Positions 55,501 to 58,500 of a stretch of 64,000 nt of DNA are shown here, piece after piece. This stretch comes from Eledone cirrhosa (lineage: Eukaryota), in contig OZ024742.1 of NCBI GenBank assembly GCA_964016885.1, forward strand, positions 300,328,001 through 300,392,000, given 5' to 3'. The notes below the pieces were generated by a model that ran no database searches, was not told the DNA's origin, and worked only from the letters and a program-made list of their open reading frames with translations. Made by a program: the position numbers and the translations under genes. Within the stretch, counting starts at the first letter, position 1, and each line of letters opens with the position of its first letter.

Positions 55501-58500
55501 AGAGAGAGAGAGAGAGAGAGAGAGAGAGAGAGGGGAGAGAGAGAGAGAGAGAGAGAGAGAGAGAGAGAGAGAGAGAGAGAGGGAGAGAGAGAGAGTGATA
55601 AGGGTAGACAGAAAGACAGAAGATAGACATAAATCGATAGATAGATATGAGCGTCAGAGAGAGAGAGAGAGAGTGATAAGGGTAGACAGAAAGACAGAAG
55701 ATAGACATAAATCGATAGATAGATATGAGGGTCAGAGAGAGAGAGAGAGAGTGATAAGGGTAGATAGATAGACAGATAAATCGATAGATAGATATGAGAG
55801 AGAGAGAGAGAGAGGGGGGATGAGGAAGATAAGCGTTATAAACAGATTTGGATTGAGAGTATGTGAGACATTGAGAAAGACGGTGAATATGCGAGAGAGA
55901 ACGTGAGAGCAAGGAAGAGAAGAGCTGACTTTTCAAATAAACAACTGGTCTATGCCAGCCAAATGACGGAAAACATTCTCAGTTCTGTACAAACTGATTG
56001 ACTTTGAACTGCAAAAAGAAAAAAAAAGAGAAAAAAAACGACGCAGATTATCTCAAAAAGCAGCAAATACTTGATGTGAATTGGAAAGAGTAAAAAAGAG
56101 CTGCAAAAAAATACAATATATATAAATCCTTGTAGTTACACAACAGTTAGTTCACCATACCGAGAACAATTGTTTCACCTTAGCAGATCCTCAGCTCGTA
56201 ATGTGAAACAATTGTTCTTGGTATGGTGAACTAACTGTTGTGTAACCACTTCTACCTAACTCGTCCCATGGACTGAGTGCTCTACCACTACGGATATTAC
56301 CTTCCAGTGTTCTACTACTATATATATATATATATATATATATATATATATATATATATATATATATGCATGCACACATGTGTATGTGTGCGTATGTTGA
56401 CACACCACACATATGTGTATGTATATATATACTGTATGTGTGTGTGTGTGTGTGTCGCTCTATCTAGAGATCTATATTCTTATACCATACCTTCATAATC
56501 TACTGTACCACTGCCGTCTGTGTCTGTTTCATTGATCATGTCCTGGATTTCATCCTCATTTAAGTCATCCCCCAGAGATTTCAGGATCCAGCGCAAGTCT
56601 TCCACATCAATGACCCCTTGGTTGTGCTTGTCTAGCACACGGAATGCCTCCCGTACTTCACGTTCGTCTTCATCTTCCTGCACTTTTCGCTTGAATAAGG
56701 TGCAGAATTTTTCCCAATTGATAACACCAATTGCTATGAGAAACAAATATACAAATATACAAATATAGAGATAGACAGATAGACAGAAAAATCCCCGTAC
56801 CCTTATATATATATTGCGAATCTACTACTCGCAGCTGCAACTTCGGTTATACTCATTATTATTAACTTTATATATATATATATATATATATATATATATA
56901 TATATATATATATATATATATATATATATATATATTTATTAAAATAACAGATTAAAGTTTAAGCAAAGAATCGCTGCTTTCACCCTTAACGGGATCTTCT
57001 GAAACTAAAAAAGGTAATCTGTGAACGCAGAAGTAAATATTACAGGATCCAGCGCAAGTCTTCCACGTCAATCACCCCTTGGTTGTGCTTGTCTAGCACA
57101 CGGAATGCCTCCCGTACTTCACGTTCGTCTTCATCTTGTAGGGTGTGTGTATATGTGTACTTTGTGTTTTGGTTGATGTACGTCCGCGAACATGTGTATT
57201 TACATGTAGGTATGTGTGTGTGCGCGTTATATACGTATTAATATGTGTATATGTATATATATTATGTATACACGCACACACACACACACACATATATATA
57301 TTCTTAATGTATTTTTATGTGTATTTGGTGTATACTTTCGTATGTGTGCGGGTACAGGCGTTGCGTGGGTTCTGTATGTGCGTGCGTGTTTTTTTTTGTT
57401 TTGTTTTTTGTGTACGTGCTTGTATTTGCATACCCATGGCGAGTGTTTTCGCGTATGCTTGTGTACGTACGTATTTGGATGTGTGTATGTATATATTTAT
57501 TTTCTATTACCTCTGTATTTTATTTACGTATTATCTTAACTCTGAAGCCGAGAATCATTCGGTTTCCTAAATAGAATTTTAGTCTACGACTTCAGTTATA
57601 CCATAAACGTGGTTTTGTCTTTGCGTGTAATTGTTCTCATGGTCCACATAATGACGTATTATCTGACGTATTATCTTCGTTTTTTCCGTTCATTGCCAGA
57701 GAACGTCTCTATGAACCACCTAAGAGAACATTAGTCTACGACTTCTTTTATACCATAAACGTGGTTTTGTCTTTGCGTGTAATTGTTTTCACCGGACCAA
57801 ATAATGACGTATTATCTTCGTTTTTTTCCGTTCTTTGCCAGGGAACGTTTCCACGAACCAAAGTATCGTCTTCCTGTCTTCCTTCGGTTGCAACGTTTTT
57901 TGAAATATTTACTTCTGCGTTCACAGATTGACTTTTTTAGTTTCAGAAGATCCCGTTAAGGGTGAAAGCAGCGATTTTTTGCTTAAACTTTAATCTCTTA
58001 TTTTAATAAATATTTGCTCTACGGTTCTTATATATCTGATATATATTTAGCCTTATCGAGCGCTCTTTAGATTTTAGTCTTCAAATTTATTATTTTCACT
58101 ATATATATATATATATATATATATATATATATATATATATATATATATATATACATATGTATATATATATTATAAAGAGCCGGGACCTCGACGGCTGAGC
58201 TCTTGCGGTTGAAACGACAAGAGCCATCGAGATAACGACAACAATAATAACAACAATGATAAAAAAGAAAAGGAAACAAAAGAAAAAAAAAGAATAGGAA
58301 AATATAGAGAAAAAGAAAGAAAAGAACAGGAAGGGGAGGGTTGGCAAGAACTCTGGTGTTGCAGAAGAGAGGGGGTGAAGGGGAGGGTGATTGGGCTTTG
58401 GGTCTAGGGCACGGGAGCAGAAGGGCTGCGCCCCGCGGACAATACCGTAAAAGCATTCCTGTCTTGGGGATTACTTGGTGCTTACATAACTGCATGGAAT

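Follow-up and report, generated by a model that had tools for sequence, protein, structure and literature searches.

Between the inverted arm and the truncated forward body of a Penelope-like element (PLE), inserted in an intron of a troponin C gene of Eledone cirrhosa, lies a 95-nt copy of part of the adjacent troponin C exon. We consider it probable, at roughly 70%, that this fragment is a junction filler, copied from adjacent genomic DNA as the element inserted, and that it is neutral and predicted not to act as an exon. Along the window (the whole 64,000-nucleotide stretch of DNA that we analyzed), the insertion reads (TA)n, inverted arm, fragment, truncated body, tail, (TA)n. The features on which our argument draws are as follows.

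56491..56733, minus strand: troponin C source exon, 243 nt, EF-hands III and IV; AG/GT borders, open frame and Pfam EF-hands
56578..56676, no strand given: stretch that the copy repeats, 99 nt with the ATTTCA microhomology (56578–56583) counted in
56869..56934, no strand given: (TA)n microsatellite, left half of the target; family copies end in (TA)n
56932..57044, minus strand: inverted 113-nt arm, the element 3′ end without the 86-nt tail; 95.6% identical to 57901–58013
56957..57005, minus strand: degenerate hammerhead-like motif in the arm, core CAGAAGA (56995–57001), from a pattern scan
57039..57044, plus strand: left junction microhomology, ATTTCA in both sources and ATTACA here
57043..57137, minus strand: partial copy of the troponin C exon, 95 nt long, or 99 nt if counted from 57039, in the same orientation as its source
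57137..58099, plus strand: forward body, 5′-truncated (3′ UTR, pLTR, tail), from comparison with other copies
57940..57988, plus strand: degenerate hammerhead-like motif in the pLTR, core CAGAAGA (57944–57950)
58014..58099, plus strand: 86-nt tail, forward body only
58100..58153, no strand given: (TA)n microsatellite, right half of the target
58824..58967, minus strand: troponin C upstream exon, 144 nt

The fragment, its source exon and its differences

The source exon is 94% identical to an octopus protein named ‘troponin C-like’ (P0001), the best of 159 matches at E≤1e-25, and this protein maps to four exons of the window, near 59736–59761, 58824–58967, 56491–56733 and 49531–49563. By sequence, the gene is a molluscan troponin C, closest to the named troponin C; molluscan troponin C has four EF-hands and about 150 aa. 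A PDB search with the source exon gave no help for naming, with calmodulin chains in all 60 entries listed. The insertion occupies the intron between exons 58824–58967 and 56491–56733, and a contig from run X4, a run of unrecorded kind, links these exons directly across the insertion. Elsewhere in the gene, tandem arrays of 33 nt and 96 nt, at 53400–54330 and 50316–50678, fall in the last troponin C intron, and a 51-nt inverted repeat with a 16-nt loop (56132–56249), with CTGAGGA...GAAA boxes on the minus strand, lies just downstream of the source exon.

The copy at 57043–57137 repeats 56582–56676 at an offset of 461, with two differences, and codes for 31 residues that form the third EF-hand. 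The initial annotation had given the copy these coordinates, had placed it directly beside the inner end of the left inverted arm and had assigned it to EF-hand III, and we recover all three points, with arms of 113 nt in the inverted repeat. At E 2e-42, the match between fragment and exon is far beyond chance. Both differences are silent: A>G at 56606/57067 changes GAT to GAC (Asp), and G>C at 56612/57073 changes GTC to GTG (Val). Followed 4 nt further left, through ATTTCA, the match grows to 99 nt and three differences. The third is the A at 57042; T occupies this position in the exon, in the right arm of the same element and in 53 of 54 family arms. In frame, the A turns AAA (Lys) into TAA, a nonsense change, and it also makes the GT of a proposed splice donor. 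The initial description of a copy that differs only at synonymous sites thus fits the two interior changes and fails across the microhomology. The A at 57042, also found at this position in 1 of the 54 family arms, could have been added without a template at the join, instead of arising by later mutation. With the exon as query, a DNA search of the 3.0-Gb genome returned two places only, the exon and the copy, so no paralog and no other copy of the element carries the fragment, which answers a question that the initial annotation had raised about the other copies.

It is extremely unlikely that the duplicate is an assembly artifact. A contig from run X1 covers 56984–57073; it contains the left junction as well as both variants and otherwise agrees with the assembly. 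Past the fragment, this contig carries on directly into the remainder of the real exon, where the assembly does not, and none of the contigs listed covers the right junction. Both observations would suit an artifact, although we give no weight as evidence to the missing coverage there or, in X4, over 57066–57121. The path of the X1 contig is nevertheless likely to be a graph collapse, because the copy and the exon are identical over 64 nt, so that a k-mer graph merges them, and because X1 lacks the true exon branch that is present in X2 and X4. X1 may come from the assembled individual, in which case its independence is in technology only.

The initial annotation had read the silent-only pattern as possible drift of the real exon under selection, as descent from another allele or paralog or as a sign of occasional splicing. 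These meanings are unsupported, as the pattern depends on the boundary chosen and is not significant, a paralogous source is not seen, and inclusion by splicing would shift the frame. Depending on transition bias, 0.21–0.29 of the possible changes in the segment are silent. The probability that two of two changes are silent is 0.05–0.08 if the copy alone mutates and 0.12–0.20 if the exon also drifts at silent sites, and the probability of at least two silent changes among three is 0.11–0.42. The number of changes can be set against the age of the insertion. The two arms of the inverted repeat (56932–57044 and 57901–58013) show 5 differences over 113 sites, about 2.2% per arm, which predicts about two changes in the copy, with 2–3 seen, if arm and body are presumed identical at insertion. 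Of 28 family loci measured alike (median identity 98.1%), 22 are less diverged than the window insertion. As the number of changes matches the insertion age, nothing beyond drift is needed, and the copy is probably neutral, an ordinary accident rather than a new exon.

A template on another allele or on a paralog, from which the copy would have inherited its silent changes, is highly improbable. Alleles of a conserved exon differ mainly at silent sites, and an old recombination could place a different allele in cis; against such a source, the assembly holds no DNA-level paralog, and the match between change count and age leaves it without a role.

For splicing of the copy, the initial annotation had proposed a weak AAG border and a possible CT|GTAATA donor. 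The phase of AAG|ATG is indeed right and a GT is present, but donor and acceptor are both poor. A cassette from AAG| (57134) to |GT (57044) would be 91 nt long; its entry is in frame, and it would shift the frame of the next exon, with a stop 20 codons into that exon. Its donor has 5 of the 9 consensus letters, without −1G and +5G, and the tract before its acceptor has 4 T, versus 12–13 at the real exons. We therefore regard as very doubtful the idea that splicing occasionally includes the copy and that it is under selection as an alternative or ‘poison’ exon. The right phase of entry, the silence of both interior changes and the GT yielded by the change at 57042 would fit such a role. The 91-nt frameshift would not, as it means that silent changes would not be selected for protein, and neither would the weak donor, the lack of a T-rich acceptor tract or the direct exon–exon join in the X4 contig, although contigs drop rare forms and rare inclusion is compatible with that join. 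Among the sequencing runs listed as holding the sequence, none is an RNA run; runs with small shares were set aside. No more credible is a version in which RT jumped, at its own insertion site, to the nascent troponin C transcript and a later T>A change at the junction supplied the donor, producing a 91-nt, low-level poison exon that tunes troponin C output.

The element family and its hammerhead-like motif

Searched as (TA)n plus the arm start, the arm end has 6,742 exact matches in the genome and the reversed control has 0, which gives a family of at least 6,742 inverted-arm ends; a search with the element 3′ end gave 3,930 candidates, of which 40 were scored. One full-length copy, L033, has direct 574-nt repeats that are 98% identical, a 57-nt inverted arm and an uninterrupted 713-aa ORF (2975–5116 of the locus), in a unit of about 3.3 kb. 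This ORF carries the RT and endonuclease motifs YRDD at 350 and YIGLT at 602, together with RWR at 41, DKT at 119, CNCRNRVDC (a CxCX5C linker) at 568, CDLC at 666 and CKH at 694, and has no G.K[FY]. Pfam returned 0 families for it at E≤0.01, and the assignment of the element hence rests on these motifs and on look-alikes found by model features (0.96–0.99), part of whose members carry GIY-YIG, RVT_1 and HTH_animal. The window copy lacks the ORF. (TA)n stands on both sides of the window insertion, and TA repeats follow most of 29 other copies. Judged by its motifs, the element is an EN+ PLE of the RT/GIY-YIG type.

We file the element as Hydra-like, a qualified name because its hammerhead departs from the canonical form and its placement follows a motif description rather than a tree. 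In that description (PMC8557442), Hydra-clade PLEs have RW[K/R], DKT, a CxCX5C linker and CxxC plus CxH around a conserved E/N, as well as a single ORF, (TA)n targets, an inverted 5′ copy and a tail, and the element here shares these features. It differs from them in its non-canonical hammerhead core and its unit of about 3.3 kb, and its tail measures 86 nt versus the 30–40 nt given for PLEs in the same text (PMC8557442). An identity with the Neptune family was rejected in the light of this description. Two reports describe both an inverted 5′ copy and a tail on one side as normal for such elements (PMC8557442; PMC3846280), and a third (PMC11167929) relates the tail of a Poseidon element to two reverse-transcription start sites in vitro. 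In the family studied here, most inverted arms share a single start site that lies 86 nt in from the 3′ end (58013 and 58099 in the window), and some arms include the tail.

The initial annotation called the inverted repeat ribozyme-bearing, which is doubtful. Across the fetched loci the pattern has 152 matches, of which 139 have CAGAAGA as their core and none has CTGANGA. In the motif, GAAA is present, the U4 position is A and the 10.1–11.1 pair is T.T. Rfam gave no hammerhead match over the whole window at the gathering score and no hammerhead among 31 matches over the insertion at E≤10, and its weak microRNA matches were rejected because they lie on AT/GT low-complexity sequence. Both copies of the motif fold no better than shuffles (z of 0.06 for 57940..57988 and 0.13 for the other). 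Compared with the minimal hammerheads described for PLE pLTRs (PMC4209133), the motif is alike in its pLTR position, type-I-like box order, extra nucleotide after position 9 and GAAA box. It is unlike them, family-wide, in having A for U4 and in lacking the G10.1–C11.1 pair, which is described as highly conserved (PMC4209133). The motif may be a lost ribozyme or relic, or an odd variant. The CAGAAGA core is family-wide, in a family whose copies number in the thousands and include at least one with its ORF intact. Separately, canonical hammerhead boxes, CTGATGA...GAAA, occur at 62850–62873 (plus strand), apparently in another repeat family and with no Rfam match at the gathering score.

Origin of the fragment at the inversion junction

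The fragment lies exactly between two element breakpoints. At the left junction, the 6-nt ATTTCA (56578–56583) is common to exon and element, in register; at the right junction, fragment and body overlap by 1 nt, the T at 57137. Ten of 29 other copies reach the point that corresponds to 57137, and element sequence continues past it in 10 of 10, so the body is truncated there. Elsewhere in the family, arm and body overlap by 5–9 nt at 12 of 50 direct junctions. The source of the fragment ends 193 nt from the (TA)n target. Near-perfect hairpins at 61747–61857 (55-nt arms) and 52705–52854 (75-nt arms) stand beside (TA)n or simple repeats, and a partial relative of the former lies at 58177–58230, to the right of the insertion.

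Formation of the fragment during insertion would fit its place at the inversion point and a divergence that matches that of the arms. Alternatively, a plain arm–body insertion could have come first, with a later break in the inverted repeat repaired by the host, through synthesis-dependent annealing or polymerase-theta end joining, using the nearby exon as template. Microhomology-flanked local copies are a trace of such repair, and the age match between fragment and arm, at 2–3 changes, is loose. We nevertheless judge this sequence of events unlikely, as the two divergences are equal within error and the fragment falls exactly at the inversion point, the element’s own breakpoint in 62 of 99 loci, where a later break need not fall.

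These 99 loci (30 + 69) were sampled from the 6,742 arm sites, all in the first 64 Mb of one contig (C1). Arm and body are both present in 62, 27 have the arm only and 10 run off the locus, so that the arm–body junction is not visible in 37 of 99. A junction gap of at least 15 nt occurs in 9 of the 62 arm-plus-body loci, and in one of the 62 (L102) the gap matches the locus’s own flank. At L102, near 50,916,400 on contig C1, a 510-nt filler stands at the arm–body junction (L102:1608–2170), and about 450 nt of it is a 97%-identical inverted copy of the locus’s own non-coding right flank, which runs on into L102’s own tail. The join of tail and flank makes a DNA template the simplest explanation, and the simplest reading is fold-back of a cDNA end, which then copied DNA through the priming site. 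The other eight gaps, including that of L066, were not counted as local fillers: those at L095, L097, L112 and L124 are TA or low-complexity runs, those at L125 and L126 are element sequence missing from the reference copy, and that at L072 is a 493-nt stretch without a local match. L066 has an 89-nt non-element filler inside its inverted arm, with no match in its own flanks as fetched; this filler resembles a dispersed repeat, and similar sequence flanks L016. Local capture at these junctions is real but rare, about 1 in 60 with a wide error, and does not require exons.

The breakpoint position of the fragment, the 6-nt and 1-nt microhomologies and the local filler of L102 at the same kind of junction all argue for local capture by template switching during PLE insertion, as the initial annotation had proposed. 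The steps of our model are inferred from the layout. The element endonuclease would cut the intronic (TA)n, and both target ends would prime cDNA. One cDNA would start in the tail, proceed through the body and stop at 57137; the other would start internally at 58013, proceed along the arm and stop after 113 nt. One of the stalled cDNA ends would then anneal to the left flank, 190–290 nt from the cut, and copy 95–99 nt. The ends would be joined, with ATTTCA either priming the copy or closing the gap, and after insertion the copy and the exon would drift apart by three changes.

A considerably less probable template is RNA. Here, RT would have jumped from element RNA to troponin C pre-mRNA or mRNA, with the ATTTCA end of the arm cDNA paired to the transcript and extended by 95 nt. 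As the fragment lies wholly inside the exon, DNA, pre-mRNA and mRNA templates are indistinguishable. In favor of RNA, a template with the polarity of the transcript is required to extend a top-strand arm cDNA, the longer of the two microhomologies falls on the arm side, the 89-nt filler of L066 has no match in its flanks as fetched, and L1 chimeric insertions from two RNAs are reported (PMC11702581). However, the bottom DNA strand has the same polarity as the transcript, and the one clear local filler of the family, that of L102, includes a tail–flank join and non-coding DNA. Moreover, a heritable RNA-templated insertion would need transcription of this muscle gene in the germ line or early embryo.

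Several observations also weigh against our preferred reading. First, L1 templates typically lie no more than 15 bp from the site (10.1101/2024.08.27.596794), whereas the template here is about 190 nt away. Second, the L102 copy is an inverted fold-back, whereas the window copy is in direct orientation. Third, local fillers are rare, at 1 of 62 arm-plus-body loci. Finally, both interior changes are silent, with a nominal P as low as 0.05 if the copy alone mutated, and are unpolarized.

Comparison with other retrotransposon insertions

Taken alone, the locus matters little, as it is likely a neutral scar that the exon match made conspicuous; gene predictors may mistake the copy for a duplicated exon. 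More broadly, how PLEs finish insertion is described as unresolved in two reports (PMC11167929; PMC8557442), and a literature search of partial coverage returned nothing on local templated fillers in PLE inversion junctions. A genome-wide catalog of such fillers, recording orientation, distance, microhomology and exon–exon joins, would test how PLE insertion is completed.

The fragment is likely to be neutral and to represent a class that is known from L1, the templated insertion at a retrotransposon junction. In two L1 reports, 22 of 3,598 insertions carry templates of <250 bp, typically within 15 bp of the site (10.1101/2024.08.27.596794), and three insertions carry nearby genomic DNA (PMC11702581). 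The cases are alike in that a <250-bp copy of near-target DNA lies in a new insertion whose joins show microhomology, and in their twin-priming-like inversions (10.1101/2024.08.27.596794; PMC11702581). They differ in that the L1 cases come from tumors or cell lines, whereas ours is a PLE at a germ-line-inherited animal locus, and in that the template here is coding and lies about 190–290 nt from the cut, rather than within 15 bp. Penelope capture in the rotifer Adineta vaga (PMC3846280) also places host sequence between pLTRs, with a layout of inverted pLTR plus tail. In that system, whole intron-bearing genes or 0.9–1.5-kb spacers are mobilized to new sites (PMC3846280), whereas here 95–99 nt were copied in cis, without spread, and occupy two places in the genome.
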